Origin: Planctomycetota bacterium
Lineage (GTDB): Bacteria > Planctomycetota > SZUA-567 > H5-PLA8
DNA length: 64,000 bases
Assembly: GCA_038227875.1 (NCBI GenBank)
Contig: JBBRPR010000004.1
Coordinates: 76,830 to 140,829 of the forward strand
Reading direction: 5' to 3'
Within the stretch, counting starts at the first letter, position 1; each line of letters begins with the position of its first letter. Below are positions 2,033-40,762 of this stretch, in pieces. A program made the position numbers and the translations under genes. Below the pieces are notes generated by a model. It was not told where the DNA came from, ran no database searches, and was given only the letters and a program-made list of their open reading frames with translations.

Positions 2033-5800
<3,768 letters not shown>

Positions 5801-14330: not shown

Positions 14331-15671
14331 TTACCGGTCTCGCCTTAGGCTCCGGGTCGCTAACTGTTGTACTCTACTGTCTCCATGCGAGGTCAGCTGC
14401 TGAACTAAAGGCAAAAACTCTGGATGCCAATTCCCCGCTTGTGCTATGTTACTCAATACTAGGAGACTCTCAGGATTCTTAACCTTTCCATAATATTCGA
14501 GAATTCGCTTGAAGATTTCGACTCGATGACGTGCCAATCGATCATAAATTGCCGGCTCCAGAACTATGTTTTGGTATACAACTAAAAATTGGTCGTTGAC
14601 TCGGAAAGCAGATTTCAAAACAGAGTCGAGGCGCTCGGGATCTGTGCAGATATTTGAAAAAATCCAAAGAGCAGTGCTGCTTGTGTTTGGGTCTTTCTCC
14701 ATCGCAATTTTCTCTAAATCGTCAATACGTCTTTGAAGTTCAATCCTGTGCGTACTGCAAAAGTTATTCTCCATGATTATTTCAAGAGCTGAACGCCTGA
14801 CGGGCGTGTCGTGATCATTGAATGCGACTGCAATAATACGCGCGGCATACTTGTCAGGGTCTAACTTTCCCAGAGCTTTCACTGCTCCTACTCGGAGTTC
14901 TAATTTCTCAGAGGTAAGAGCAGATTCCAATAGGCTGTAGCAATTTTCGGCAATTTGCGTTTCTCCCAATGAGTATAAGACCGCCATTTTAACTTCCATT
15001 GATGCTTCATTGAAAGCTCCTTGAAGATCAGCACAAATGTCAGGACCGACATCATGAAAGGCCTGCAGCGAGTATGCGGCAAGTTCTTGATCCTTTAAGG
15101 ACTTTGAACAAAGTTGCCCTCTTAGAAGTGCAAGTTCATTCGATCCGTCACTAAGAGCGTCGGGTAGAAAGCGACACTGCGGGATTGGATTCCCCCAAGC
15201 ATCATCTTCGCCATCTGTTATGTCTAGAAAGCGCTCAACAGGCTGAAAGGGGATATTGAGTTTAGACATTGTTGTCAAGACGTCGCTCAAAGCATCCCGA
15301 AAGGTCTTCTCGTTTCCCTGCGCGTAAAGGTTAGTGCGTGCAAAGTTAGCGATTGACCTAATGGAATTGTACAATTTGTCTGCTTCATTCTTTCTTAGAG
15401 AACTGATTCCTGTCGAGCCGTTTTGCCACTGCATAATTTGTGAAGGGGATTCGGGCAGCCTAGACAACATCAAATCTTCCCATTTGCTGAGATCCCGAAA
15501 ACTCGTGAAGGACCACAGGATAGTTATTGCATGGTCAATTTTTGGAGACACTTGCAATGTCGAGTGTGCATATGCGTCAAGGCATGAAACGAGGTACGCC
15601 ACGCGCGTTCGTTGTAAAACACCGCAAAGATTTTCATACAATTCTTCAAAATTTAAACTCTGTTGGTCCAT
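14331..15671 (-). CDS. Hypothetical HEAT/ARM-repeat protein (446 aa) in the low-GC island
   Basis: HEAT-like repeats (ELRVGAVKALGKLDPDKYAARIIAVAFNDHDTPVRRSALEII). Low GC. No catalytic motif recognised. Confidence 0.6.
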   Translation of the reverse strand: MDQQSLNFEELYENLCGVLQRTRVAYLVSCLDAYAHSTLQVSPKIDHAITILWSFTSFRDLSKWEDLMLSRLPESPSQIMQWQNGSTGISSLRKNEADKLYNSIRSIANFARTNLYAQGNEKTFRDALSDVLTTMSKLNIPFQPVERFLDITDGEDDAWGNPIPQCRFLPDALSDGSNELALLRGQLCSKSLKDQELAAYSLQAFHDVGPDICADLQGAFNEASMEVKMAVLYSLGETQIAENCYSLLESALTSEKLELRVGAVKALGKLDPDKYAARIIAVAFNDHDTPVRRSALEIIMENNFCSTHRIELQRRIDDLEKIAMEKDPNTSSTALWIFSNICTDPERLDSVLKSAFRVNDQFLVVYQNIVLEPAIYDRLARHRVEIFKRILEYYGKVKNPESLLVLSNIAQAGNWHPEFLPLVQQLTSHGDSRVQQLATRSLRRDR

Positions 15672-23181: not shown

Positions 23182-23252
23182 GCGGATTTTTTGCGCGGGC
23201 GGGCTAGAAGGCAGAAGCAGTCGGCAGGATCGCAGGCGTTGGGAATCGATTC

Positions 23253-23726
23253 ATGGCGGAAGCTGAAAAGTCAGAGCGGCTACAGTTTTCATTGCTGACA
23301 ATGTTTGTCGTCGCTCTTCTTGCCGGCGGCGTTCTGGGAATTTCAGTGGCCATATATAAAGTGATTCAGGATGACGGCAACGCTGCACAAACACGTCATG
23401 CGACCGATAGCGCTTTTCGAGTTGTCGAGCGCTTCATGGAGGCGCATCCAGGCCAGTGGCCTCAATCCTGGCGCGAACTGGAAACCGTAAAGGATCCAAG
23501 CACCGGAAAACCAATGGATTTGTATACTATTCAAAGACGTGTCAAAATTGACTTCACGCTCGGACTTGAAGATCTGGAAAAGCAGTCGGAAAGCACTTTC
23601 ACTGCAATTCAAGCCATTGGTCCCACGTATTCTGATTCGGAGAGCGCCAACCAAGCCAACCAGATCATTGAGTTGGCGAAGAAGTACGTCAAACTTCAGG
23701 CTCATGCGCCAGTATCGCAAAAATAG
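23253..23726 (+). CDS. Hypothetical membrane-anchored protein (157 aa)
   Basis: N-terminal TM segment FSLLTMFVVALLAGGVLGISVAIY. Slightly lower GC. Immediately upstream of the giant gene. Confidence 0.5.
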   Translation: MAEAEKSERLQFSLLTMFVVALLAGGVLGISVAIYKVIQDDGNAAQTRHATDSAFRVVERFMEAHPGQWPQSWRELETVKDPSTGKPMDLYTIQRRVKIDFTLGLEDLEKQSESTFTAIQAIGPTYSDSESANQANQIIELAKKYVKLQAHAPVSQK

Positions 23727-23859
23727 CGTTTGGACGCGCCGGGGTCGTTCCGAAGTCTGGTTTGGGACGCTAATTACCCGAAATGTGTGCAACGAATGCC
23801 GGGGTGCGGGGTCTAAAGTCGCAAATCGTCTGACGGGATTACTAAAAGGGAGCACCATC

Positions 23860-26800
23860 ATGTCAAATTCGCGAATACCTCTGGTTCTGTTCGTGGCGCT
23901 GCTGGCGGGGGCGGCGCGGGGGAACGAAGTCGGGTACGTGGAGGATTTTGCGCTTTCGGCCAACCGCGGGGATACGCTCAAGCAGCTCATTCCCGGATCT
24001 GAAGATTACTACTATTACACCTGCCTGACGTACCAGCAGACCGGCGCGTTCGACAAGGTCGACGAGCTGCTCAAGCTGTGGATTGAACGCCACGGGCGCA
24101 CGGCGCGCGTCGAAGAGATCGTCAACCGCAACGCGCTGCTGGCGTACGAAAAGGACCCGAAGAAGTCGCTCGACTTTCTGCGCTGGCGGCTGGGCTTGAA
24201 CTTCGATCACCGCAAGGAAATCATCGACCAGAAGCCCAACCAACCCACGCGCCTGGATCCCGCCGTGATCGCGAGCGAGACGATGACCCGCGACGCGCTC
24301 AATCATTACGGCAACCTGCAGGGCATCGAAGATTCGGCGCTGGAACTGCTTTCGCAGCAGAAGCTGACCGGCGAACAGCGCCGCGAACTGCTCGGCCGAT
24401 TGCATCGCCCGGACCTGACCAACATGGTCCAGCTGGTGATGGAAGATTTGCGCTACAAGTACAGCTCGGGTTTCGGTTCGATGGAAATCCACAGACAGAT
24501 GACGCTCGCGCAATTGGACGAACTGGTGAAGGCCATGCCGGAGCTGGCCAACCAGGTGAATTTCATCGGCGCCTACCTGACCAAGCTGCAGCCGACGCCG
24601 GACGTCGACGCGCAGTTGAACGCGAAGGAGCGGCTGGCGTGGTTCGACCGCGTCTGGGCGTTTGTGGCGAAGTTGCAGCCGGCGCACAATTCTCTGAAGG
24701 CGCACGTCCTCTTCCACCGCCTGGAATTCGACCGCACGCAGGGCGTGTACGACAAGGACCGCTTCATGGAATACCTGAAGCTTCCGCGCCCCACCGCTTA
24801 CATGCGGCCGGAGTACCTGCAGCGCACGTACCAGATCAATGGCGGCCAGGCGCAGGCGAATTTGAATCAGGATTTCTCGGCGTCGACGCTGATGGTCGTG
24901 GTCAACACCGACGACGAATTGGTCCGCGATTACCTGCTCCACTTCTTTCAGAAGGAAGAGGACTTCGCGCCGTACCTGGTCTACGTTCGCGACGATTATA
25001 TCAAGGATATCTTCGCGGAAGCCAAGATCGTCAACGGCATCGGCGACATGGAGAAGTGGTATTCGCTGCTGAACAACCCCACGCGCTACCAGGCGCTGAA
25101 AGACCGCGTCGACATCGATTTCGCGCCGGAGAACAAGCACTTCTTCACGGCCAACGACGCGGTGAGCCTCGACGCCGACGTCAAGAACGTGAAGACGCTG
25201 ATCGTGAAAGTGTTTGAAATCAACGCGCTCAATTATTACCGCGAGAAGAACCGCGAAGTCGACACGTCCATTAATCTCGACGGACTGGTCGCCAACGACG
25301 AGAAGACCTTTACCTACGACGAAGCGCCGCTCCATCGCGTGCGCCGCCATTTCGATTTTCCGACGCTGAAGAAGCCCGGCGTGTACGTCGTAGAATTCAT
25401 CGGCAACGGCACCAGCAGCCGCGCGCTGATCCACAAGGGGAAGCTGCGATTCATCGAGCACACCGGCACGGCCGGGCACGTCTTCAGCGTGATGGATGAA
25501 GAGAACAAGCCGGTGAAGGACGCCAGCATCTGGATGGCCGGGCGGGATTACACGGCCGACAAGGACGGCGAGATCCACATTCCCTTCAGCACCGCGCCGG
25601 GACAGCAGACGATCGTGCTGCATCAGGGCGAGTTTGCGAGCTTCGACACGTTCGACCACAAGGGCGAAGTCTACACTCTGAACGCCGGGTTCCACGTCGA
25701 CCGCGAAGCGCTGCTCAAGCGGCAGAAAGCCAGCGTGCTGGTGCGGCCGGAGCTGACGCTGACGGGCAATCTCGCCACGGTGGGATTGCTGGAAGAAGTG
25801 ACGTTGCAGATCCAGACGACCGATCGCGATGGCGTGGGGACGACCAAGGAAATTCCCGACTTCAAGCTTTTTGACGACAAGGAATCGGTCTACGAATTCT
25901 CGACGCCCGACAACATCATCCAGATCGGCTTCACACTGCGGGCACGGGTGAAGAGCCTGACGCTGCAGAAGAAGATCGACCTGGCCACGTCGCGTACGTT
26001 CGGCCTCAACCGCATTGACCTGTCGGAGAAGATCGAAGCACTGCATCTCAATCGCACGGCTGACGGGTACTTCCTGCAGCTGCTGGGCAAGACCGGCGAG
26101 ACCAAGGCCGACCGGCCCGTGTCGCTGAACTTCAAGCACGTCGATTTCCGCGAACCAGCGCACGCGGCGCTGCAGACCGATGCCGACGGCAAGATCGTGC
26201 TGGGCCAGCTGCCCGACATTATGCTCGTGAGCGCCACGCTGCAGGACGGGCAGGCGTACTCGTGGATCCTGCCGCGCGACAATCACAATTATCTTTCGAC
26301 CGTGCACGGCAAGCCCGCGCAGGCGATCCATCTGCCGTACATGGGCAGCGAAAAAGCGCCGACGCGCGCGGAGTTCTCGCTGCTGGAGCTGCGCGGTTCG
26401 CAGGCCGACGGCACGGGTACGTTTGTGCGCGATTGCTTCGAGAATCTGGCGATCGCCGACGGCTTCGTGGAGATCAAGGGCCTGACGGCCGGCGACTACT
26501 CGCTGCTGCTGAAGAAAGCCAACGAGCTCGTGTTGATCCGCATCACTGATGGCGAAATCCGCGACGGCTACGCGCTGGGCGACGTCCGCACGCTGGAAAT
26601 CAACAACGCCGAACCGCTCCAGATCACCAGTGTCGACGCCAACGCCGACACGCTCAAGGTTCAGCTCAAGAACGTGACGAAGTACACGCGCGTGCATGTC
26701 GTCGCCGACCGCTTTCTGCCGGCGTATTCGATCTTCACGCAGCTCTCGACGCCCGGCCTGCAGGAACCGGAGAGCGTGGTCTGGACGAAGATGATTTCGC

Positions 26801-29800
26801 ATTACCTGACCGGCCGCAACATTGGCGATGAGTACCGTTACATTCTGGAACGGCGCTACGCGCCGAAGTTCGCCGGCAACATGCTGGCGCGGCCGAACCT
26901 GCTGCTCAATCCGTTCACGCTGCGCACGACCGACACGGCGCAGGACGATCTGAACGGCCAGGGCAATTTCGGTTCGCGTTCCGGCGGCGGACGGCGAGCG
27001 ATGATCACGCGCCACGGTGGAACCCGCGCCGACGAGACCGATTCGGCGCCGTGGGCGAATCTGGATTTCCTGCCCGAGCCGTCGACGCTGCTGGCCAATC
27101 TGGTGCCGGACAAGGACGGCGTGGTGAACATTTCGCGCAAGGACCTCGGCGCGCACCAGAACGTCCGCATCGTGGCCGTCGACACGCAGAACACGGTCGT
27201 GCGCGACGTCGCGCTGCAGGAAGTTGCGCTGAAGCCCAAGGACCTGCGCCTGGCGACGGGCCTGGACCCGGCCAAGCACTTCACCGAGCAGAAGGAAATC
27301 ACGCTGCTCAACGCGGGGCAGTCGCTGGTGATGGACGACATCACCACGTCGAGCCTGGAGTCGTTCGACACGCTGCGCAAGGTCTATGGACTCTACACGA
27401 CGCTCAGCCGTGACCCGCGCCTGAGCGAGTTCGCGTTCATTCTGGAATGGCCGAAGCTGAAAGACGACGAGAAGCGCGCGGCGTATTCCAAGTACGCGTG
27501 CCATGAATTGAATTTCTTCATCTACAAGAAAGATCCGGACTTCTTCAAGGCGGCGCTGCTGCCGTACCTGAAGAACAAGAAAGACAAGACGTTCATGGAC
27601 CACTACCTGATCGGCGACGACATGACGGCATACACGCAGCCGTGGAATTACGATCGCTTGAACACGGTCGAACAGATCCTGCTCGCGCACCGCGTTCAGG
27701 CGGAGCTGAATCCGGCCGTGCGCCACGCGAAGGAAATTTACGATCTGATGCCGCCGGACATCGAGCGCTTCAATTTCCTCTTCAAGACGGCGCTGCAGGG
27801 GAATGCGCTTGAGACGGCTGATGGCGTCGGCTTCCGCGAAGCGACGGGGAAGATTGTCGACAACAACCGCAAGTTGAACGACGCCCGCGATCAATTGAGG
27901 GCGAGTAATGAGGAGGGCAAGGCGGATGCTGCGCCCGCCGCCAACGGATTTGCGCTTGGTGGCGCTGCCGGACAGCCCAGCAACGGGCCTGCGTCGCCAC
28001 CGCCCCCGGCCGTTGCCGCCGCGAGACCCGCCGCACCCGCGAAAACCGAGCAGTTGGCCAAAAAGCTGGCTGACCAACGTTCCGACAAGAATAAGAGCGG
28101 CGAATTTAAAGAGCGTGAAAAGTTGAAGGACGCCGCCAAGAAGCCGATGGCGCAGGCGGCTCAAAGAGCTGCGGAGGCGGACGACGCCAAGGCGGACAAG
28201 CAGCAATTGGAGGGCTTGGCCGTCGATCTCGAAAGCCGCGACCAGGCGCAGCAACAGATGCTCTACCGGAAGCTCGACAAGACCGAGGAGCTTGCTGAGA
28301 ACAATTACTTCAAGCTGCCGATCGAACAGCAGCTCGCGTCACTGGTGACGGTCAACGCGTTCTGGAAGGACTTCGCGGCCAACGCCAACAAGGGACCGTT
28401 CCTTTCGGGGAACCTGGCCGAAGCGTCGCGCAACTTCACGGAAATCATGTTCGCGATGTCGGTGCTGGACCTGCCTTTCGAAGCCGGCAAGCACGCTTCG
28501 GAATTCGCGGCGCAGAAGATGACGCTCAACGCCAAGAGCCCGATCGTGGCGTACCACAAGGAGATCAAGGAAAGTCCCGCGGCGGAGAAGACGCCGGTGC
28601 TGGTCAGCCAGAATTTCTACCGCGCCGACGACCGCTTCCGCTTCGAGAACAACGAACGCTTCGACAAGTACGTCACCGACGAATTCCTGGTGCATGTCGT
28701 CTACGGCTGCCAGGTGGTGCTGACCAATCCGACGTCCTCACCGCAGAAACTGGATCTGCTGCTGCAGATCCCGCGCGGAGCGATGCCGGCGACCAACGGT
28801 TTTTACACCAAGGGGCCGTTCGTGCAGTTGGCGCCGTATTCGACGACGACGTTCGATTACCACTTCTACTTCCCGCTGCCGGGCGAGTTCACGCACTATC
28901 CCGTCCACGTTTCACGCAACGGCAAGATGATCGCGTCGGCCGCGCCGGTGATTTTGAAGGCCGTCGCCAAGCTGACGAAGATCGACACCGAGTCGTGGGA
29001 TTACATCTCGCAGAACGGCACGGACGAGCAGGTGATCACCTACCTGGATGCCAACAACATCCACCGCATCAATCTCGATCGCATCGCCTGGCGCATGGGC
29101 AACGCGGCGATGTTCAAGAAGGTCACCGAGCTGCTGACCCGCCGCCACGATTACAACAATACGCTCTGGTCGTACGCGATCGTGCACAACGACGTCCCGG
29201 CGATCCGTGAATTCCTGGCGCACGCCGATGGCTTCGTGGCGCAGACGGGGCTGTGGCTGGAAAGTCCGCTGCTGGCGATCGATCCGGTGGCGCGCAATTT
29301 CTATCAGCACCTGGAGTACAGCCCGCTGGTCAACGCGCGCGCACACCGGCTGGGCAAAGAGAACAAGATCCTCAACGACCGATTCTACGAGCAGTACGAA
29401 CGGATCCTGCATGTCCTGAAGTACAAGCCGGAACTCAGCGACGCCGACCGGCTCTCGGTCTCCTGCTACATGCTGCTGCAGGACCGCGTCGCCGACGGAC
29501 TGGCGATGTTCGCGAAGGTCAATCCGGAAAAGATCGCGACGAAGATCCAGTACGATTACGTAAAGGCGTTCGGCGACTTCTATTCCGACGAACACAAGAC
29601 GGCGCGCGAAGTGGCGGCGACGTACAAGGACTATCCGATCGACCGCTGGAAGAACCGCTTCGCCGATATCGTCGCGCAGCTGGACGAAGCGGCGGGCAAG
29701 AACGCCGTGGCCATCGACAAGGAAGACCGGACGCAGGCGATGGGCCAGCTGGCGGCCGGCGAGCCGAGCTTTGAGTTCAAGATCGACGGCAAGAAGGTGC

Positions 29801-30336
29801 ACGTGAACTTCCAGAACCTGCAGGGTGCCGAGGTCAATTTCTACCCGATGGACATCGAGCTGCTCTTCTCGAGCAACCCGTTTGTGCATGACGTCAACGA
29901 TCAGTTCTCGTTCGTGAAGCCGGTGAAGACTACGACGCTGAAGTTCCCGGAGAAGACGAAGGAGTTCGAATTCGACGTGCCGCCAGAGTTCCTCAATTCG
30001 AACGTGATGATCGAGCTGAATGCCGCCGGCACGCGGAAGTCGCAGGCGTATTACGCCAACGCGATGACCGTGCAGACGATTGAGAACTACGGGCAGGTCA
30101 AGGTCGTCAACCCAAAGACCGAGGCGCCGATGCCGAAGGTGTACGTGAAGGTTTACAGCAAGATGAAGGACGGCGAGGTGCGCTTCTACAAGGACGGCTA
30201 CACGGACCTGCGCGGCCGCTTCGATTACGCGTCGCTGAGTACCAACGAACTGGACAACGTAGCGCGGTTTGCGGTGCTGGTGATGAGCGACACCGACGGC
30301 GCGATCGTGCGCGAGGCGAATCCGCCGAAGCGGTAA
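23860..30336 (+). CDS. Giant secreted protein (2158 aa) of unknown family
   Basis: RBS AAGGGAG, then the ATG at 23860. Signal peptide MSNSRIPLVLFVALLAGAARG. An alpha-helical N-terminal ~500 aa, then multiple beta-sandwich-like repeats, then a low-complexity Ala/Pro/Lys/Gln-rich central segment. No catalytic motif recognised. Confidence 0.85.
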   Translation: MSNSRIPLVLFVALLAGAARGNEVGYVEDFALSANRGDTLKQLIPGSEDYYYYTCLTYQQTGAFDKVDELLKLWIERHGRTARVEEIVNRNALLAYEKDPKKSLDFLRWRLGLNFDHRKEIIDQKPNQPTRLDPAVIASETMTRDALNHYGNLQGIEDSALELLSQQKLTGEQRRELLGRLHRPDLTNMVQLVMEDLRYKYSSGFGSMEIHRQMTLAQLDELVKAMPELANQVNFIGAYLTKLQPTPDVDAQLNAKERLAWFDRVWAFVAKLQPAHNSLKAHVLFHRLEFDRTQGVYDKDRFMEYLKLPRPTAYMRPEYLQRTYQINGGQAQANLNQDFSASTLMVVVNTDDELVRDYLLHFFQKEEDFAPYLVYVRDDYIKDIFAEAKIVNGIGDMEKWYSLLNNPTRYQALKDRVDIDFAPENKHFFTANDAVSLDADVKNVKTLIVKVFEINALNYYREKNREVDTSINLDGLVANDEKTFTYDEAPLHRVRRHFDFPTLKKPGVYVVEFIGNGTSSRALIHKGKLRFIEHTGTAGHVFSVMDEENKPVKDASIWMAGRDYTADKDGEIHIPFSTAPGQQTIVLHQGEFASFDTFDHKGEVYTLNAGFHVDREALLKRQKASVLVRPELTLTGNLATVGLLEEVTLQIQTTDRDGVGTTKEIPDFKLFDDKESVYEFSTPDNIIQIGFTLRARVKSLTLQKKIDLATSRTFGLNRIDLSEKIEALHLNRTADGYFLQLLGKTGETKADRPVSLNFKHVDFREPAHAALQTDADGKIVLGQLPDIMLVSATLQDGQAYSWILPRDNHNYLSTVHGKPAQAIHLPYMGSEKAPTRAEFSLLELRGSQADGTGTFVRDCFENLAIADGFVEIKGLTAGDYSLLLKKANELVLIRITDGEIRDGYALGDVRTLEINNAEPLQITSVDANADTLKVQLKNVTKYTRVHVVADRFLPAYSIFTQLSTPGLQEPESVVWTKMISHYLTGRNIGDEYRYILERRYAPKFAGNMLARPNLLLNPFTLRTTDTAQDDLNGQGNFGSRSGGGRRAMITRHGGTRADETDSAPWANLDFLPEPSTLLANLVPDKDGVVNISRKDLGAHQNVRIVAVDTQNTVVRDVALQEVALKPKDLRLATGLDPAKHFTEQKEITLLNAGQSLVMDDITTSSLESFDTLRKVYGLYTTLSRDPRLSEFAFILEWPKLKDDEKRAAYSKYACHELNFFIYKKDPDFFKAALLPYLKNKKDKTFMDHYLIGDDMTAYTQPWNYDRLNTVEQILLAHRVQAELNPAVRHAKEIYDLMPPDIERFNFLFKTALQGNALETADGVGFREATGKIVDNNRKLNDARDQLRASNEEGKADAAPAANGFALGGAAGQPSNGPASPPPPAVAAARPAAPAKTEQLAKKLADQRSDKNKSGEFKEREKLKDAAKKPMAQAAQRAAEADDAKADKQQLEGLAVDLESRDQAQQQMLYRKLDKTEELAENNYFKLPIEQQLASLVTVNAFWKDFAANANKGPFLSGNLAEASRNFTEIMFAMSVLDLPFEAGKHASEFAAQKMTLNAKSPIVAYHKEIKESPAAEKTPVLVSQNFYRADDRFRFENNERFDKYVTDEFLVHVVYGCQVVLTNPTSSPQKLDLLLQIPRGAMPATNGFYTKGPFVQLAPYSTTTFDYHFYFPLPGEFTHYPVHVSRNGKMIASAAPVILKAVAKLTKIDTESWDYISQNGTDEQVITYLDANNIHRINLDRIAWRMGNAAMFKKVTELLTRRHDYNNTLWSYAIVHNDVPAIREFLAHADGFVAQTGLWLESPLLAIDPVARNFYQHLEYSPLVNARAHRLGKENKILNDRFYEQYERILHVLKYKPELSDADRLSVSCYMLLQDRVADGLAMFAKVNPEKIATKIQYDYVKAFGDFYSDEHKTAREVAATYKDYPIDRWKNRFADIVAQLDEAAGKNAVAIDKEDRTQAMGQLAAGEPSFEFKIDGKKVHVNFQNLQGAEVNFYPMDIELLFSSNPFVHDVNDQFSFVKPVKTTTLKFPEKTKEFEFDVPPEFLNSNVMIELNAAGTRKSQAYYANAMTVQTIENYGQVKVVNPKTEAPMPKVYVKVYSKMKDGEVRFYKDGYTDLRGRFDYASLSTNELDNVARFAVLVMSDTDGAIVREANPPKR

Positions 30337-33087: not shown

Positions 33088-33897
33088 ATGAGATTCAATC
33101 GCTTCGCTCATTTGAATCGGTCGCGCGGCTTCACGCTGATCGAATTGATTCTTGTCATCTTCATCATGGCGCTTCTGACGGCCATGACCACGCCGATGCT
33201 CTTCCAGTTTGTGAAGACGACAAAAGTACAACAGACGGTGAAGGCAATCTCCACGTCGCTCTACCGCGCCCGCACGGAAGCGATGCGGACACGAAAAATG
33301 GTGGGCGTGTATTTCGGTGAAGATCCGACCAGCTGCAAAACCCCACCGCTGCCCGGCGTGCTGCCGAGCAAGGGTCGCATTGAAGTTTGGACCGTGCGGG
33401 ATTCCTACGACAGTGGCGACTTTCAGAACGAAGGCGGCTGCATGGGCAGCACAACGCCCTACAATCTTCCGTTCGATGGAGCCAACTGGTATCCGTACCG
33501 CCACCCCGACCGCTGCCTGACGCCCGAACCCATCTCTTATCCCGATGGCGTGCGCATTCTCGCGGGCAAGTTCAGCAACAACGCGACCGCGCCCAAATAC
33601 GTGTTCGGCTGGCCAAAAGACTACATGGCCACGGCCGAAGGCGAAATCAAACGCCACAACATCACGTTCGCCTCGACCGGCGCGATGGCGATGCCCATCG
33701 ACGGTGTGAACAGTTGGTGGAATCTTTTGATTTTCGATGAACAGACCGGCGAATACACCCTGCTCTCCTGTGGCGAATGGCTCACTTCGGCCCGACCGCG
33801 GGTGCTGAACTTTCAGTTGAGCGGACTGTATGGCCCGTCGGGCACGTACTACCCGCTGACCAACAAGCTGGACATTCCGAAGCTCGTCGAACAGTAA
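33088..33897 (+). CDS. Prepilin-type N-terminal cleavage/methylation domain protein (pseudopilin 1, 269 aa)
   Basis: RSRGFTLIELILVIFIMALL has the G/FTLIE class III signal with Glu at +5. GGGAG RBS. Confidence 0.8.
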   Translation: MRFNRFAHLNRSRGFTLIELILVIFIMALLTAMTTPMLFQFVKTTKVQQTVKAISTSLYRARTEAMRTRKMVGVYFGEDPTSCKTPPLPGVLPSKGRIEVWTVRDSYDSGDFQNEGGCMGSTTPYNLPFDGANWYPYRHPDRCLTPEPISYPDGVRILAGKFSNNATAPKYVFGWPKDYMATAEGEIKRHNITFASTGAMAMPIDGVNSWWNLLIFDEQTGEYTLLSCGEWLTSARPRVLNFQLSGLYGPSGTYYPLTNKLDIPKLVEQ

Positions 33898-33914
33898 ACG
33901 CAAAGAGGAACGCC

Positions 33915-34520
33915 GTGCGCACCACGCTTGAAACACCGATCCTTTCCATCCGCAGCAGAGCGCGCCGGCCGCGCGGTTTGACGTTGCTGGAAGTGATCAT
34001 CGCGATGTTCATCTTCCTGATCGGCATCGTGGGCGTGCTGGCGGCGATGCCGACGGGCATCAATTCCGCGACGTGGGTGATCTTTCAGGATTCGGCGATC
34101 CATCTGGCGCATTCGAAATTCGCGGAATTCCGGCGCGACCGCGTCGATCCGGCCGTGCAGCTGAATCCCACTCCCGGCGGTTACCTGCCGACGACAACAC
34201 CTTATATGGCGGGGAATCAGGAACCGTTCAACAGCGAGGGCGATCCGTGGCGCGATTTCGCGCACAACGCTGGTGATCCGTACCAGTACTTCGAAGACAT
34301 CGACCGCTACGAATGGTGTGTCGATGCGACGCACGCCATCGACAACGGCATTGGCTCCACCGATGTTCCGCTTCCGGCGAATTTCTTTTTTCCCACGAAC
34401 GTCGCCCCGGGCGGCGTCTCGCGGATTCAACTCTACCGCGTCGACATCACCATCCGCATGAAGAGCACCACGCGGCAGATGCGCTTTACGCAATACCTGT
34501 ACTCGTACGGCCAGCTGTAA
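33915..34520 (+). CDS. Prepilin-type N-terminal domain protein (pseudopilin 2, ~201 aa, GTG start)
   Basis: RPRGLTLLEVIIAMFIFLIGIVGV. AAGAGGA RBS, then the GTG at 33915. 17-bp gap from the upstream gene. Confidence 0.7.
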   Translation: MRTTLETPILSIRSRARRPRGLTLLEVIIAMFIFLIGIVGVLAAMPTGINSATWVIFQDSAIHLAHSKFAEFRRDRVDPAVQLNPTPGGYLPTTTPYMAGNQEPFNSEGDPWRDFAHNAGDPYQYFEDIDRYEWCVDATHAIDNGIGSTDVPLPANFFFPTNVAPGGVSRIQLYRVDITIRMKSTTRQMRFTQYLYSYGQL

Positions 34521-34539: not shown

Positions 34540-35775
34540 ATGAAGGATACGCATCACAACCCGCTGAGACCGCGCGCCTTCACTCTGGTGGAGATGATGG
34601 TGGTGCTGACCGTCAGCCTGCTGCTGATGACGATGATCGTGCCGGTCTTCCGGCTCTCGACGAAAACCGTGCAGGTGGTCGAACGGAAGCTGGCTGTCTA
34701 CGAATCGGCGCGCAACATCCTCGACCTGGTCGAATCGGAACTGCAGCTGGCCATCACCAATGAAAAGGGCGAACACTTCTCGATCAAGCACGTGTCGTGG
34801 ATGGACACCGATCCGTTCACGCCGCCGTTTACCGGTCCAGTGATTTTGCCTGGAACGATGGACACCGGAAACATCGCGTACAAGCACGACCGGCGCATCA
34901 GTGACGCGGTGAACTACCTGCGACTGGAAGGCCACGGCACCAATTCGAATTACGTGCCGTCCATGCGCCAGTTTCCCGGCGGCAAATTCTTTCCACTCAG
35001 CTATCCGATTCTTGAGGCCACGTTTCCTGAAGCGTGGAAATGCTCGATGCGTTCCACGCTGCTGTACCAGCACGATTTCGAACTCGGCGAAGAAGCGGAC
35101 TCCGACGCCGGCCAGAAACGCTGGAGCCGTTCCGAACAGCTCGGCGACGTGGGCCAGGTGGAACTCGCTTTTATTTTTGAAACGGTTGCCAATCAATGGG
35201 AAGGCATCCAGGCGGCCAAGACCATGTACGACCAGACCGCCAATTACCTGGGACCCGGGCGCGAGATCAAGGTACCGCATCTGGTTGGAGGATCGGGCGG
35301 ACCCGGCCAATTGGAATTCCAGCGCCAGCGCCGCGGAGGCCAGGTCAAGATTATGGACCTTGCTGTTTCCTACTGGGACGACACCCAGAAAAAATACATG
35401 GATTTGCCGGAAAATACGGTGATCTACTTCTTCCCCATGCCCAAGGCCGTGCGCACGACCATCACGGTCTGCGATGTCGACAAGCGCACCACGCTGACGC
35501 TCAGCCGCATCGTCCATCTGCCCTGCGGCTCCGGCGATGGCAACGCGCTGTTGAACCCAGGTGTCGTGGCAGACACGGCCTACTTCACTGACCTGAAGCA
35601 GCCCAACAACACGATGCACGCGGTCTACAACCGGACCAAGTACCTGCCGTCGCTGCCCAACGCGTTCAATGGCGACGGTTCGCGCGGTGACCTCACCACC
35701 ACGTCCGATTTTTCGTCCGCGACCGAAAACAGCATCATCACGCAGGATGGCGTCAAACCGTATCAATGGCCGTAG
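34540..35775 (+). CDS. Prepilin-type N-terminal domain protein (pseudopilin 3, 411 aa)
   Basis: PRAFTLVEMMVVLTVSLLLMTMIV. 19-bp gap from the upstream gene. Confidence 0.75.
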   Translation: MKDTHHNPLRPRAFTLVEMMVVLTVSLLLMTMIVPVFRLSTKTVQVVERKLAVYESARNILDLVESELQLAITNEKGEHFSIKHVSWMDTDPFTPPFTGPVILPGTMDTGNIAYKHDRRISDAVNYLRLEGHGTNSNYVPSMRQFPGGKFFPLSYPILEATFPEAWKCSMRSTLLYQHDFELGEEADSDAGQKRWSRSEQLGDVGQVELAFIFETVANQWEGIQAAKTMYDQTANYLGPGREIKVPHLVGGSGGPGQLEFQRQRRGGQVKIMDLAVSYWDDTQKKYMDLPENTVIYFFPMPKAVRTTITVCDVDKRTTLTLSRIVHLPCGSGDGNALLNPGVVADTAYFTDLKQPNNTMHAVYNRTKYLPSLPNAFNGDGSRGDLTTTSDFSSATENSIITQDGVKPYQWP

Positions 35776-35809
35776 AGCGTTTTGGGAATCGGATTTGGAA
35801 CTGCAGCAC

Positions 35810-38800
35810 ATGAAGCAGCGCACCACACGAAACAATGCTACTGCAACGGGGCCTGGTGCCGTTTCCAGCCGGGGCTTTTTGTTGCTGGTCGTAATCGGCA
35901 TCCTGGCCGTGCTGTTGACCGTCTGCATCGGTTTCCTGTCATACACACGCGGTGAGATCCTGGCCGTCTCCGCGCAGCGCAACAAGAGCGACGTGGTGGA
36001 CGTGATGCACACGGCGCTGGACTACACGCTGGCCAATATCTGCACCGACCAGATGTCCGGCACCGGCAGCATGGACGAGAAGGTACCCTGCGCGTATACG
36101 CTTACTCCCGGTGCGACCGGCCTTACCGGCTCGCCGTGGTGGTTCCGGACGCTTCAAAACGGAACGTGCGACTTTCTGCCCCGGAACGACAGCATCGTGG
36201 GCGGCGGCTGGGGATTTTCATTGAAGCCGGCGACTCAGCCGGGCGTGGAGACCAATTGGATTTATCTTCCCGCCGACTACTTCCCGGGTGGCGCCATCCG
36301 CGGACGCGCGCAAGTCCAGGTGATGGACACCAATTGCTGCATCAATGTCAACGACTGGAACGAAGACGGCATGCCCTCGCAGGCCCAGATGGCGCACATG
36401 ATTGCGGACGGCTACGGACCTCTTTATCTCGAAAGTCTGCGCCGCGGGCGCGATGTCGCCAGCCCCAACGGCGTGCCCTATAATCCGTTGCGCTACCATG
36501 AAGCGTGGCGCGTCGCCAGCCACTCCGCGCGCTACATGGCCTGGCCGGATTGGGACTATCACAGCGACGGTGCTCCGATCAACAACACCGCAAGTTTCTG
36601 CTTTGCAACGAAGAACTCGTCGTGGCTGAGCATGTATGGGCCGCAGTACAGCTGCATCTCGTCGATCATTCAGTCCGATGGCATTCCGCTGGGACAGACT
36701 ACAGCCGCCACGGTTTATCTTGGCTCCCAGCTGTACGCAACGGTGAACCCGTGTCCGGCACCTAAACAGTACGACCGAACTCCGCCGACCAATCCGTCGG
36801 GCTTCACCTGGGGCAATCCGCAGAGCGCGGGGTTCCTGCCATGGGGCATGGCGGGATTTTTCACCACGGGCTACACGGACCCCGACACTGGCCGCAGCCC
36901 GGTCAACGTCAACACCTGTTACAATTCCGGTGAGATTCTCCCTTTCGACTACTGGAGCAATCCTCCCTGCTACACGATGGAAGGCGTCTGGAACGTCGAA
37001 TCGCTGCGGCGCATCATCAAGGTCGGCTGGTTCAACGATCCGTGGTCGACGTACTGCATGATCGGTGGAGTCAAAACGTTGCGTACTGCGGTGCCAGCGG
37101 CGAGTGGCGGGACGACGTGGTCGAATGCGCAGCGCGATTGGTGCGTGCTCGATCCCAGAGCGAAGATACTCGTCGAGACGCTGAAATTGCAGCTCGCCTA
37201 CCAGTACCAGGAAACGCTCTGCCGTTACTTTACTGGAACGTACTCTCATGGCGGAGTGAACCAGAAGTTCAAGCCCTTCAGTGCCACTGCCATCAAGACC
37301 TACCCGTCGACGTACACACCGGCTACTACACCGCTGCCTGCGCCGACGCATCCGTGTCTGGTCACGAATTACAGCGCGCCGCGGTTCCCGGTATCGCTCA
37401 CGGATTTTCGCAATCATGTGCGAGACGACCTCGTCAATTGTCTGAGCAAGAATTTCACCAATCCCGCCTACACGACAGCGGTGGCCGGGCTGCCGCCGGG
37501 AACGCCGCTTCCGCCGCGCCCGGCGGGTCAGCTCGATGCCACGTACACGGATGGCACCGTGAACTTTGTCTTCGTGGGCCCGGGTTTCGTCCCGGAGATC
37601 GCTCCGGGAAAACTGGACGTGCGCACCGCTTGCGCGTGCTATGACAACATGGTCCCCGGCAAGCCGGTTGACATTACTGTGTTCAACGGTTGCACAGCCT
37701 ACGGCGCTGGCGATCCGATTTACGAACTCTACGCGCTACAGGTTGGTCGCCAGGAAGACATGGACGACGCCTATCAGATCGATGCCAGCATCATTCATGA
37801 TTCCGCAATCAATGGCATCAACGGTACGGACGTCCGTCCTTCCCGCAAAAAGCTGGGAGCCACAAACAACGGCAATCCCACGTTCAATCTGGGTACCGTA
37901 CCCAGTCCCGCGGTTTACCCCTTCTCGCTGGTGACGTGGCCGCTTCCCGCGCTGACCGCGGCCACGAAGATCGGCAACATCTCGTCACGCTGGGTGGACA
38001 ATCCTCAACTGAGCGCCACGTCGTACTACTCAAGCTTCAATGGACCCGATCCGGCGTGGGAAGCACATTTGTATGACCATCACACCCGCATGATGACGCT
38101 GCTGCCCAAGGGCAACGACATCTGCTCGCGAAACGCGTTCGATCCCGCGGACGGCCGGAAGTTCAATGGCACGGTTGTCACCGGAAGTCCCGAAATTCCC
38201 ACCGGACCGTGGTTGGATGACATGGTCCTGGGCTCAGGGGGCACGATCGTCAGTACCGGTTACAACCAGATGAATCGTTCAGGATCCAATCAGCATGACG
38301 TTCCGTTCCGCCAGCTGTGTTTCACGCCCGATTCGTTCTCGACAGAATTGACGACGACGTCGACGACCTTTCTGATCATCGTCAACGCGCAGTTGGTCGA
38401 TCAGGCCTCAGTCGTCGCCAATCCGGGCAATCCCGCTCTGCATTTGGATCAGTCGTGGAATCAGTGGGGCTGTGTCGTGCAGATCGCTCCCGATGTCAAG
38501 GTGGAGACGTCTGTGAGCGAACCGGCAACCAAGAACATGCTCAAGACCGTTCCTCCTGATCCGAACATGCAGACGCCCAATGGCCCCGCAGCGCCGGACG
38601 CTCAATTCTGGCAGTGGTACAAAAACGAAATGCCTCGCCGCGTCAAGACCTATCAGGGCACACTGCCGATGACCAGCAATGGCTGGCTGGATGATTCCTA
38701 CTTGGATGACGCCTGCCCCAGTCTGTACGCCCGCAATCGCGGTAACACGGGTGCCTACACCACGCCGTTTGGGCGCACGTCGAATCAGCCCCGCATGCCG

Positions 38801-39082
38801 TGGAAGGGAGTTGGCGGATACAACCCAGCGATGAGCGGCGGTGTGGCGGAATTGGAAAACTCGAACTCCACCCACATCCGCGACTGGAAACGGGCCCTCA
38901 ACCCCGGCGAGATCACCACCGGCTGCGATATCAACCAGGTGCCGCCGGCGGGCGTACCCAGCGGGCGCGGCGCGGACGTCATCTATACGCCAGCCAATCA
39001 GATCAAGAAGCGCATCATCATCCGCTCGATCTGGTGTCTGAATCAGGGCATTGAGCAACAACGGGCCACGCAGGGAGATTGA
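35810..39082 (+). CDS. Giant GspK-like pseudopilin (1090 aa): pilin-like N-terminal helix without Glu+5, followed by a ~1040-aa extension
   Basis: MKQRTT...SRGFLLLVVIGILAVLLTVCIGFLSYTRGEILAVSAQRNKS is a GspK-type N-terminus. 34-bp gap from the upstream gene. Confidence 0.75.
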   Translation: MKQRTTRNNATATGPGAVSSRGFLLLVVIGILAVLLTVCIGFLSYTRGEILAVSAQRNKSDVVDVMHTALDYTLANICTDQMSGTGSMDEKVPCAYTLTPGATGLTGSPWWFRTLQNGTCDFLPRNDSIVGGGWGFSLKPATQPGVETNWIYLPADYFPGGAIRGRAQVQVMDTNCCINVNDWNEDGMPSQAQMAHMIADGYGPLYLESLRRGRDVASPNGVPYNPLRYHEAWRVASHSARYMAWPDWDYHSDGAPINNTASFCFATKNSSWLSMYGPQYSCISSIIQSDGIPLGQTTAATVYLGSQLYATVNPCPAPKQYDRTPPTNPSGFTWGNPQSAGFLPWGMAGFFTTGYTDPDTGRSPVNVNTCYNSGEILPFDYWSNPPCYTMEGVWNVESLRRIIKVGWFNDPWSTYCMIGGVKTLRTAVPAASGGTTWSNAQRDWCVLDPRAKILVETLKLQLAYQYQETLCRYFTGTYSHGGVNQKFKPFSATAIKTYPSTYTPATTPLPAPTHPCLVTNYSAPRFPVSLTDFRNHVRDDLVNCLSKNFTNPAYTTAVAGLPPGTPLPPRPAGQLDATYTDGTVNFVFVGPGFVPEIAPGKLDVRTACACYDNMVPGKPVDITVFNGCTAYGAGDPIYELYALQVGRQEDMDDAYQIDASIIHDSAINGINGTDVRPSRKKLGATNNGNPTFNLGTVPSPAVYPFSLVTWPLPALTAATKIGNISSRWVDNPQLSATSYYSSFNGPDPAWEAHLYDHHTRMMTLLPKGNDICSRNAFDPADGRKFNGTVVTGSPEIPTGPWLDDMVLGSGGTIVSTGYNQMNRSGSNQHDVPFRQLCFTPDSFSTELTTTSTTFLIIVNAQLVDQASVVANPGNPALHLDQSWNQWGCVVQIAPDVKVETSVSEPATKNMLKTVPPDPNMQTPNGPAAPDAQFWQWYKNEMPRRVKTYQGTLPMTSNGWLDDSYLDDACPSLYARNRGNTGAYTTPFGRTSNQPRMPWKGVGGYNPAMSGGVAELENSNSTHIRDWKRALNPGEITTGCDINQVPPAGVPSGRGADVIYTPANQIKKRIIIRSIWCLNQGIEQQRATQGD

Positions 39083-39157
39083 ACGCCAGCATGCAGTTGA
39101 TCGACGATGTAACGACGGGCCGCAGTGCGGAGGATGACGTTCGTGTTGGAGACCACA

Positions 39158-40762
39158 ATGTCGGGTGAAAAGGCGAACGTTCCGTCCGGCGACGCTGCCG
39201 AACCGGAAAAAACCGTTCGCAATCCTCAGCCTCCCCGCACGCCCACGCCGCCGAGCGTCCCGCTGGCCGCTCAGCCTCCGCGTCTTTCCACGGCCAAATA
39301 TGTGCCCATCGGCAGCAGTAGTGGAATTGGACCGTCAGCTGCATCAGGAACCGGAACACGAGCAGGTACCGGACGGTTTATGCCGATCGGCGGCCGCCGC
39401 GCGACGGATCCCAAGCCTTCCAATCCGGCGCGTGGGACTTTCACTCCCGCATCGGGCGGAGCGCCCGGCGGCGTCCGCACGCCCAGTAAGTTTACGCCTG
39501 TCCCCCCCGCGTCCTCACTCAGTGGCGGCTCGGCGGCTGGATTGCGCCCCCAGTCGCGCCCAGGCCAGGCGGGCCAGATGAGCCAGCCGGCGCGCTCAGC
39601 CAACCAGCCCACCTCCAACAGCATCAATCCCTTCGGCAATCTGACCGTCAATGCGCCGGCAAAATCGGGGATCAACAAAGCACCGGGAGCAACCGCCACG
39701 TCCGCCACGTCCGCCACGTCAGCGGGGTCGGGGCATTGGAGCTGTTCGAAGTGCGCCAAAGCGCTGGGACCGCGCAGTGTCAACCAGGGCACGGCGATTT
39801 TCCTTGAAGGCAATCTCATCTGCGTCGAATGCGTGAAAGGCAACCGCCGCAACCAGGCGCAGTTGCCCGTGGCCACGCTCGCGATTTTCGGCGTCGTAAC
39901 CCTCGCGATCCTCGGCGTCGTCGGATTTTTTCTGCCCAGCCAGGCACTGCTGATCGGGCTGTTGCTCGGCGTGTCGCTGCTGCTCGTCGGTACCATTGGA
40001 TTCACGCTGGATGGAAAATCGCGGCTGGGGACGGTGGCCGCCGGACTGCTGGTGATCGCGCTGACCTCCTACGGCCTGATCGTCACCGGTGAACACAAGG
40101 AAGAGAAGGCGGCGTTCAGCGAGATCGCCACGCAGGCCGACGAAGTCAAAACGCTGCTGGCGAAGGATTGCCTGCTGGAAGCCGAAGCCCGCATCAACAC
40201 CGTCGAAACGCAGATGGACAAAAAGTACGGCGGCCAGCCGCCTCCCAATGTCACCACTGCCATCGTCGCGCTGCGCAAGTCGACGCAGGAGTGGAAGGAA
40301 GCGCATTTCGGCAAGCTGCAAACCACCGAACAGAAATTGCTCTCGGAACTCTACCACCGCGTCGGCTCCCTGACGCCGTACACGCAAACGCCGCGCATTC
40401 AGCAGTACAAGATCGAAGAAGGCAAACACCTGCTGGTCACAGTCGCCACCGACGTTAAGCCGCCGGAGGTTCAGAACTCCTCCGACGACGGCACGACGAT
40501 CAACAAAGAGACCGACGACCCGATCGGCGCGGAAGCCTCGCGCGTGGCGATGCTGGCGATCAAGCAGGACCGCGCACTGGAAACGATCACCGTCCGGATC
40601 GTCTCCGGCGGACCCAACAGCTCTGAATTGCTGACCCGCACCTACGACGCCACGCGCGTCGCCGAAATCCGCAACAACCTAAACGCCCCCGCGCGCGCCC
40701 GCACGCGGACCGCGGAATCCAGCACCGCGCCACGGTTTGAACGTCCGCCAGAACACCCGTGA
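39158..40762 (+). CDS. Polytopic membrane protein with a disordered Pro/Gly/Ser-rich N-terminus, a CxxC...CxxC zinc ribbon, three TM helices and a C-terminal soluble domain
   Basis: WSCSKCAKALGPRSVNQGTAIFLEGNLICVECV. TM helices LAIFGVVTLAILGVVGFFL, LLIGLLLGVSLLLVGTIGF and AAGLLVIALTSYGLIV. GGAGA RBS before the ATG at 39158. Confidence 0.65.
   Translation: MSGEKANVPSGDAAEPEKTVRNPQPPRTPTPPSVPLAAQPPRLSTAKYVPIGSSSGIGPSAASGTGTRAGTGRFMPIGGRRATDPKPSNPARGTFTPASGGAPGGVRTPSKFTPVPPASSLSGGSAAGLRPQSRPGQAGQMSQPARSANQPTSNSINPFGNLTVNAPAKSGINKAPGATATSATSATSAGSGHWSCSKCAKALGPRSVNQGTAIFLEGNLICVECVKGNRRNQAQLPVATLAIFGVVTLAILGVVGFFLPSQALLIGLLLGVSLLLVGTIGFTLDGKSRLGTVAAGLLVIALTSYGLIVTGEHKEEKAAFSEIATQADEVKTLLAKDCLLEAEARINTVETQMDKKYGGQPPPNVTTAIVALRKSTQEWKEAHFGKLQTTEQKLLSELYHRVGSLTPYTQTPRIQQYKIEEGKHLLVTVATDVKPPEVQNSSDDGTTINKETDDPIGAEASRVAMLAIKQDRALETITVRIVSGGPNSSELLTRTYDATRVAEIRNNLNAPARARTRTAESSTAPRFERPPEHP

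Follow-up and report, generated by a model that had tools for sequence, protein, structure and literature searches.

The largest open reading frame (ORF) of a 64,000-nucleotide stretch of DNA from a Planctomycetota bacterium (assembly GCA_038227875.1, contig JBBRPR010000004.1, positions 76,830–140,829 of the forward strand; hereafter the window, whose own numbering is used throughout) raises the question of what kind of protein its 2158-amino acid (aa) product is. An earlier note on this DNA had regarded it as a candidate giant adhesin or macroglobulin-like defence protein of unrecognised family, accompanied by a small membrane protein encoded upstream. Here we conclude, with a probability of roughly 0.85, that the 2158-aa protein belongs to the CAGE family (McCafferty et al., bioRxiv 10.1101/2025.09.22.677704) and is an ordinary bacterial representative of it. 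The family is indeed absent from the curated domain libraries, yet it can no longer be called unrecognised, as it is the subject of this 2025/2026 preprint. Few protein assemblies of megadalton size have been discovered recently, and CAGE is among them; more than two-thirds of its known members are bacterial, while the cages have been seen only in eukaryotes. The window gene reveals no new kind of system; it is a typical and intact bacterial CAGE gene, and several observations made on it reduce the range of functions to be considered.

The gene and its predicted product

The longest open frame of the window extends from 23539 to 30336 on the + strand, and within it the ATG at 23860 begins a gene of 2158 codons plus stop (23860..30336, + strand), which is preceded at a distance of 7 nt by the Shine–Dalgarno-like sequence GGGAG (23848..23852, +). 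The next largest ORFs of the window encode 1463 aa (antisense) and 1255 aa (a PKD-domain protein). The G+C content at third codon positions (GC3) is 0.85, similar to that of the adjoining genes, and the log-odds score of codon usage is +0.70 in this frame versus approximately −1 in the other frames. Owing to these two values the ORF is clearly coding, and its earlier description as the largest ORF, of 2158 aa, is confirmed. The 1463-aa ORF (23863–28254, − strand) lies wholly within the gene in antisense orientation; such shadow ORFs are typical of coding sequences with a high GC3, and this one is not a gene. Between 22900 and 30700, the promoter and terminator scan gave no signal above chance and no family was matched in the Rfam scan.

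The N-terminus of the protein reads MSNSRIPLVLFVALLAGAARG|NEVGY. The first 21 residues, MSNSRIPLVLFVALLAGAARG (23860..23922, +), constitute the Sec-type signal peptide that had been recognised previously; it has no lipobox Cys, and the predicted cut follows Gly21. The signal peptide was judged by reading the sequence, not by a dedicated predictor. In 56 of 58 related loci, a similar hydrophobic N-terminus stands before the conserved EIG[FY].E.F motif, and most of the bacterial CAGE proteins carry a signal peptide of 21–22 aa (10.1101/2025.09.22.677704). The 2158-aa protein, bearing such a Sec signal, is predicted to be exported.

Identification as a member of the CAGE family

McCafferty et al. 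(bioRxiv 10.1101/2025.09.22.677704) described the CAGE complex of Tetrahymena and Dictyostelium as a D2 homotetrameric hollow cage of ~1 MDa, whose subunits are 2216 aa long in Tetrahymena (CAGE1) and 2364 aa in Dictyostelium (AbpF/DDB_G0291229, XP_635154.1). The eukaryotic cage is an ellipsoid of ~22 × 16 × 12 nm enclosing a cavity of ~600 nm3 with slit-like openings. According to the same preprint, the subunit consists of 15 domains, which are either helical (1, 2, 11, 13, and 14) or β-sandwiches (all others); no Pfam or SCOP match exists, and Foldseek links domains 4 and 6 to alpha-2-macroglobulin (A2M). The authors listed 3521 CAGE homologues, over two-thirds of them bacterial, chiefly from Planctomycetota, Verrucomicrobiota, and Thermodesulfobacteriota; their Table S2 was obtained by BLASTP with Dictyostelium XP_635154.1, applying a cut-off of E ≤ 1e-5 for homologues.

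Three proteins closely related to the window protein occur in Table S2: MCO6456975.1, which is 50% identical to the window protein (E = 0, 29.9% identity, and 92% coverage in Table S2), NLX57883.1, 52% identical (E = 1e-163), and HEY3325008.1, 61% identical (E = 4e-167). They cover XP_635154.1 at 69–92% with 29–30% identity, and it is through these listed homologues, 50–61% identical to the window protein, that the similarity defining the family extends to it. The domain map obtained with AlphaFold2 (see below) follows the order of the 15 CAGE1 domains, the boundaries agreeing within ~60 residues, and the length of 2158 aa falls within the ~1900–2400 aa expected of a member. Domain 11 is split in CAGE1 (1244–1414 and 1519–1559; 10.1101/2025.09.22.677704), and here too it is divided by a disordered insert into aa 1172–1353 and ~1467–1543. 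The eukaryotic and the window proteins thus share a length of ~2100–2400 aa, the same order of helical and sandwich domains including the split domain 11, the lack of Pfam/SCOP domains, and sandwiches resembling the macroglobulin (MG) domains of A2M; the 21-aa signal peptide is likewise that of a bacterial CAGE protein. They also differ in several respects. The Dictyostelium subunit is only ~30% identical (the values are those of the listed homologues), and the bacterial protein is predicted to be exported, whereas the eukaryotic ones have no signal peptide. The cage was seen for eukaryotic members only, and the reported eukaryotic partners (actin, Asf1, and intraflagellar transport [IFT] proteins) are absent from bacteria.

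The family itself, its bacterial spread, the signal peptides, and the A2M-like sandwiches were already reported in the preprint, and the gene is a typical further member. The new contribution of this work is modest: it comprises the lack of a conserved neighbourhood in 81 loci, the lack of a conserved Cys or thioester, two hypervariable loops that are always present, the extent of the family in metagenomic space (~3000 clusters at 50% identity), and the finding that the upstream ORF is no partner.

Family size and distribution

When 5.8 billion protein clusters were searched with the window protein, more than 1600 homologues were retrieved. The best 120 homologues are 2074–2173 aa long, apart from one partial sequence of 1753 aa, and are 49–80% identical to it over the whole length; all of them are annotated as 'hypothetical' and nearly all are without a Pfam domain. 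Using the N-terminal half as phmmer query, 3006 clusters at 50% identity were detected at E ≤ 1e-3, of which 1216 reached E ≤ 1e-30. Relatives are encoded in 326 stretches of species-representative genomes, of which 80, with proteins 40–61% identical to that of the window, were kept as the locus set. These loci derive from Pirellulaceae, Gemmataceae, Phycisphaerae, Kuenenia, many Verrucomicrobiota, Kiritimatiellia, Lentisphaerae/Victivallales, and three Desulfobacterales assemblies, that is, they cover all free-living phyla of the Planctomycetes–Verrucomicrobia–Chlamydiae (PVC) superphylum plus Desulfobacterales. The length of ~2100 aa is tightly kept, and identity remains 40–80% over the full length across phyla. 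The distribution analysis proposed in the earlier note thus yielded a large, length-conserved family of the PVC phyla and Desulfobacterales, and in Planctomycetota, Verrucomicrobiota, and their relatives, thousands of 'hypothetical proteins' of ~2100 aa can now be named as CAGE proteins.

In the loci examined, most genome assemblies were represented by a single CAGE gene. Two full-length paralogues (L008 and L034) were found on different contigs of the Victivallales metagenome-assembled genome (MAG) binchicken_co97_160; three paralogues, CAGE1–3 (I7MLD7, I7M9Z0, and I7MGF4), are known in Tetrahymena (10.1101/2025.09.22.677704). Full-length genes outside the PVC superphylum are located on three contigs of Desulfobacterales/Desulfococcaceae (L006, L007, and L039), and their products share 46–47% identity with the planctomycete protein. 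Table S2 likewise contains entries from Thermodesulfobacteriota, among them the cultured Desulfonema magnum (WP_207681440.1), and from Myxococcota, as well as from the genera Blastopirellula and Fimbriiglobus (10.1101/2025.09.22.677704); MDM8525676.1 of Desulfococcaceae HSG8, with 2116 aa exactly as long as the product of the L007 gene, is listed there with E = 0, 31.2% identity, and 92% coverage. The occurrence of CAGE genes outside the PVC superphylum suggests horizontal spread among Gram-negative phyla. As to the direction of transfer between bacteria and eukaryotes, the preprint tentatively regards the bacteria as the recipient of the CAGE gene (10.1101/2025.09.22.677704); the very large and deeply diverged PVC clade could instead have been the source of the eukaryotic gene.

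In two Verrucomicrobiae/unclassified MAGs the gene is interrupted. An apparent frameshift in the low-complexity spacer, with a TGA at codon 1387 and a stretch that looks out of frame, was seen in L057:6001-12597, and an in-frame TAA occurs at codon 1769 in L052:6001-12087. These interruptions could be assembly errors or pseudogenes.

Domain architecture

Structures were predicted by AlphaFold2 using 36 diverse homologues as the alignment, and the chain was run as two halves. The model of the N-terminal half (aa 1–1060) reached a mean predicted local distance difference test score (pLDDT) of 82.7 and a predicted TM-score (pTM) of 0.74, that of the C-terminal half (aa 1061–2158) 71.7 and 0.51, respectively. 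Conservation of the regions was expressed as mean column identity across 20 PVC-wide members. Altogether three helical domains and ~10 β-sandwiches were predicted, and each of the structured regions is conserved, with a mean column identity of 0.48–0.71.

The N-terminal region (aa 26–415; 23935..25104, this and all following features of the protein being on the + strand) was modelled as entirely helical, with pLDDT mostly of 85–95, and corresponds to domains 1–2, which are helical over aa 1–443 in CAGE1 (10.1101/2025.09.22.677704). The helical N-terminus expected earlier is therefore real, but it extends over ~400 rather than ~500 aa. It is followed by five consecutive MG/immunoglobulin (Ig)-like β-sandwiches (aa 418–940; 25111..26679), which were recognised both in the AlphaFold2 model and by Foldseek and represent domains 3–7. 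The next segment (aa 941–1025; 26680..26934), characterised by the GRNIGDEYRYILERRYA..NLLLNP motif, is highly conserved (column identity 0.64, many residues being invariant) and leads to a hypervariable, Gly/Ala-rich disordered loop (aa 1026–1066; 26935..27057; column identity 0.31, pLDDT <40), which is present in all members with a length of 34–47 aa while its sequence drifts. A further β-sandwich lies in aa 1067–1171 (27058..27372; the sandwich itself occupies ~1100–1171) and matches part of domain 8. Helical domain B (aa 1172–1353; 27373..27918; pLDDT ~90) is the first part of domain 11 and carries the conserved motifs KYSKYACHELNFF and PYL.NKKDKTF.

The central low-complexity spacer noticed previously was confirmed at aa ~1354–1466 (27919..28257), where the Ala/Pro/Lys/Gln/Asp-rich sequence is predicted to be disordered (pLDDT 30–45). 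It interrupts domain 11, as in Tetrahymena CAGE1, and is retained in all members at a length of 65–147 aa with a column identity of only 0.24. Directly behind it lies the most conserved segment of the protein (aa 1467–1543; 28258..28488; column identity 0.71, pLDDT 85–94), the second part of domain 11, which is short and partly helical in the model and contains EWAENNYY.LPI... The remainder of the AlphaFold2 map consists of two β-sandwiches (aa 1544–1705; 28489..28974; domain 12), helical domain C (aa 1706–1968; 28975..29763; domains 13–14), and a C-terminal pair of β-sandwiches (aa 1969–2158, the sandwiches reaching to 2153; 29764..30333; domain 15). The last pair, with a column identity of 0.59–0.69, ends in DGYTDLRGRFDY and the conserved PPKR terminus. 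Low model confidence at aa 991–1140 is probably a consequence of dividing the chain at residue 1060, near which the half-models lose confidence because domains 3, 8, 9, 10, and 11, as published, join distant chain segments.

Self-BLAST revealed no internal sequence repeats, and hhalign between 15 domain slices gave probabilities of at most 34%. Since no sequence repeats are detectable, the sandwiches are repeats in the structural sense only; of the many β-sandwich repeats supposed previously, the ~10 sandwiches were found, but not any repetition of sequence.

Relation to alpha-2-macroglobulins and other alternatives

Scans of the 2158-aa and the 157-aa upstream ORFs against Pfam, NCBIfam, and PADLOC gave no significant match, so the Pfam search advised in the earlier note returned neither A2M/MG nor any other domain. 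When 20 diverse members were compared with Pfam at E ≤ 10, only weak matches to CarboxypepD_reg (3/20) and bMG3 (2/20, best E 0.01) appeared, and none of the A2M-family models (MG2, A2M_BRD, A2M, TED_complement, A2M_recep, and bMG) was significant in the window protein or in these 20 members. Foldseek searches of the two half-models against the PDB, the other check that had been advised, told a different story at the level of the fold. The best matches of the N-terminal half were the β chains of complement C5/C3, A2ML1, CD109, TEP1, ECAM, and Salmonella A2M (E 1e-10 to 1e-7), and those of the C-terminal half were the C3b α′ chain and C5 (E ~1e-6), which is in accordance with the macroglobulin-like appearance of the sandwiches remarked on previously. 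The TM-scores to A2M/C3, however, were only ~0.1, and generic Ig arrays (oncostatin M [OSM] receptor, NCAM, and myosin-binding protein) and GH2 enzymes were also matched.

These matches make a thioester-less bacterial A2M-type protease trap, similar to MagD/YfaS, the best surviving alternative to the CAGE identification. In such a trap, cleavage of a bait loop would collapse the MG cage round an invading protease. The two halves align with the C3 β chain and the C3b α′ chain, respectively; the hypervariable Gly/Ala loop of constant length sits mid-protein, where the bait regions of A2Ms are; the protein is probably exported, human A2M also forms a tetrameric cage, and the two weak bMG3 matches point in the same direction. 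The sequence-level tests gave opposite results. The family profile aligned with Escherichia coli YfhM by hhalign at a probability of 0.2%, and the C.EQ thioester motif occurred neither in the window protein nor in any of 108 family members, extending the earlier observation that CGEQ is missing. There is no invariant Cys in the family either, as several members have Ser, Ala, Gly, or Thr in place of Cys1214 and Cys1617. The missing thioester alone would be compatible with an A2M-like function, since A2Ms without one, such as MagD, are known. Among 81 loci there was, moreover, no pbpC or mag-type neighbour, in contrast to the yfhM-pbpC arrangement seen in E. coli; the TM-scores are low and are accompanied by the generic Ig and GH2 matches; the three helical domains have no A2M counterpart, and the eukaryotic homologues are intracellular.

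Compared with the A2M/C3–C5/TEP superfamily (including ECAM YfhM and MagD/YfaS), the window protein is likewise large and probably exported, appears to contain strings of MG-type sandwiches with an inserted helical domain, and has a variable flexible loop mid-protein; this superfamily gave the best Foldseek matches, and the human A2M tetramer is a hollow cage, a parallel that was also drawn in the preprint (10.1101/2025.09.22.677704). It differs in that no sequence relationship is detectable and TM-scores remain at ~0.1, in the lack of a thioester, a lipoprotein anchor, and a pbpC or mag operon, and in possessing additional helical parts, namely an N-terminal region of 390 aa and a third domain. 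The macroglobulin likeness is therefore real for the single sandwich folds, while none of the tests at the level of sequence or motif places the protein in the A2M family. Consequently the idea of a macroglobulin-like defence protein has to be given up as a family assignment: a match to a bacterial A2M across the whole length, the finding that according to the earlier note would have made the protein ordinary, was not obtained, and the CAGE family was found instead. Trapping of proteases is conceivable as a way of working, but we consider it improbable.

The proposal of a giant surface adhesin, or of a structural protein of the cell envelope built from Ig-like domains, is much harder to maintain. 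The size, the signal peptide, the ~10 Ig/MG-like sandwiches, and the low-complexity Ala/Pro-rich spacer would all suit it. Tandem sequence repeats are missing, however, and no anchor, autotransporter, type I (T1SS) or type IX (T9SS) secretion system, or PEP-CTERM domain was found in the library scans. The length is held at ~2074–2173 aa, identity between phyla is 40–60%, and every domain is conserved, unlike in fast-evolving adhesins; in addition, the eukaryotic homologues form closed soluble cages. The adhesin claim thus receives hardly any credence.

PVC bacteria are polysaccharide specialists, and an equally faint candidate is a polysaccharide-active enzyme or carbohydrate-binding scaffold (a helical toroid with sandwiches as in lyases, or GH2-like) tied to the neighbouring GH9 and sugar genes, for which this specialisation, the GH2 glycosidase matches of the C-terminal model (E 5e-5 to 3e-4), and the GH9, GFO/IDH/MocA, xylose-isomerase-like TIM barrel, and AraC regulator genes upstream might speak, but which is opposed by the lack of any glycosidase or lyase Pfam match in 20 members, by the GH2 matches being weaker than the complement ones and explicable by strings of sandwiches, by a neighbourhood that is not kept even in 70–80% identical relatives, and by a gene that, in the loci examined, is mostly single per genome assembly, unlike the families of carbohydrate-active enzymes (CAZymes).

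Possible assembly and function of the bacterial protein

If the CAGE protein of the window behaves like its eukaryotic relatives, the precursor would be exported by Sec and cleaved following Gly21, and four copies of the mature chain (~2137 aa, ~235 kDa) would assemble in the periplasm as a D2 homotetramer. The product would be a hollow shell of ~0.95 MDa and ~22 × 16 × 12 nm, with a cavity of ~600 nm3 and slit-like openings, as in the solved eukaryotic cages. By analogy with these, we regard cage formation by the bacterial protein as probable, although less so than its membership in the family.

Planctomycetes have an enlarged periplasm, and the periplasm contains no ATP; a CAGE mechanism in bacteria must run without ATP if, as predicted, the protein is exported. 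No catalytic, cofactor, or nucleotide-binding motif and no cysteine is conserved in the family. The absence of ATP, of such motifs and cysteines, and of a conserved operon partner favours a passive container or holdase over an enzyme or an adhesin. With low certainty, the bacterial cage may thus be pictured as an ATP-independent container that admits or holds periplasmic macromolecules. The two disordered loops, four of each per cage, might serve as flexible gates, tethers, or bait-like elements, because no member lacks them although their sequences drift freely. Combining these elements gives an energy-independent periplasmic cage with hypervariable loops as bait or gate, which captures or stores macromolecules in the large PVC periplasm and is functionally convergent with tetrameric A2M while belonging to a separate, older family. 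We put this forward as a long shot; the container and loop functions are speculation and much less sure than the identification of the protein.

Several points speak against the reading developed here, and they concern its different parts. The connection with the solved eukaryotic cages is a transitive one, leading from the window protein to the listed homologues and from these to the Dictyostelium protein, and the tetramer was demonstrated only for two eukaryotic proteins, which are ~30% identical to the bacterial ones. Neither the protein alone (phmmer) nor a profile of 89 sequences matched any PDB sequence at E ≤ 1, and neither sequence nor Foldseek searches matched the CAGE entries 11KS and 11KT, which the PDB copies searched did not yet contain. 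The half-models cut through domains made of distant segments, so neither the cup shape nor the interfaces are visible in them. The container mechanism was deduced from negative evidence, and as eukaryotic CAGE is cytosolic or ciliary while the bacterial one is exported, a common function is not obvious.

Among known containers, the vault, the encapsulins, and the GroEL-type chaperonins resemble the proposed bacterial cage in being megadalton shells of one kind of subunit round a cavity and candidates for sequestration or holdase roles, and the comparison with vault/encapsulin/chaperonin-type containers was made in the preprint as well (10.1101/2025.09.22.677704). Their folds are unrelated, however, and CAGE differs in having no ATPase domain, cargo-loading peptide system, or linked cargo gene and in a shell that consists of only four subunits.

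Genomic environment of the CAGE gene

Flanking ORFs were clustered over the 81 loci, and no family was found beside the CAGE gene in more than 12 of them. The recurring ones (DUF1501, sulfatase, and GFO/IDH/MocA) are generic expanded PVC families. In the window, genes for GH9, GFO/IDH/MocA, xylose-isomerase-like TIM barrel, and AraC regulator proteins lie upstream, and those of a β-helix protein and pilin-like N_methyl proteins downstream. The 80% and 70% identical relatives have other neighbours (PIG-L in the one case, PhyH and a two-component system in the other) and lack the small membrane protein. The CAGE gene stands alone, with no conserved operon.

The small membrane protein reported upstream corresponds to a 157-aa ORF (23253..23726, +), which ends 133 nt before the ATG at 23860 and does encode one hydrophobic segment. 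Its GC3 is 0.50 versus 0.80–0.85 in the neighbouring genes, its codon score is negative, and it is situated within a locally AT-richer stretch of 680 bp (23182–23859). No homologue was detected by tblastn in 82 loci, and in the 5.8 billion protein clusters there was none either, not even the ORF itself. Considering its absence from the relatives and the 82 loci, the lack of homologues, and the atypical codon usage, we rejected it as a partner of the CAGE protein; it is an orphan, possibly a spurious one, and may represent a strain-specific gene or a non-coding region upstream of the CAGE gene.

Some further features of the window are worth mentioning. The segment 14001–16000 is a low-GC island (GC 0.47 versus ~0.60 elsewhere) with a 446-aa HEAT-repeat gene (14331–15671, −), and it may be recently acquired DNA. 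Two large ORFs of 1137 aa (35669–39082, +) and 545 aa (39125–40762, +), without a Pfam match, are located directly 3′ of the genes of the pilin-like N_methyl proteins (33777–34520 and 34540–35775), together with which they may form a planctomycete pseudopilin-associated cluster. Finally, the 1255-aa protein encoded at 2033–5800 (−) contains PKD, He_PIG, and bacterial Ig/cadherin-like domains and is a better candidate for a conventional surface adhesin in the window than the CAGE protein.

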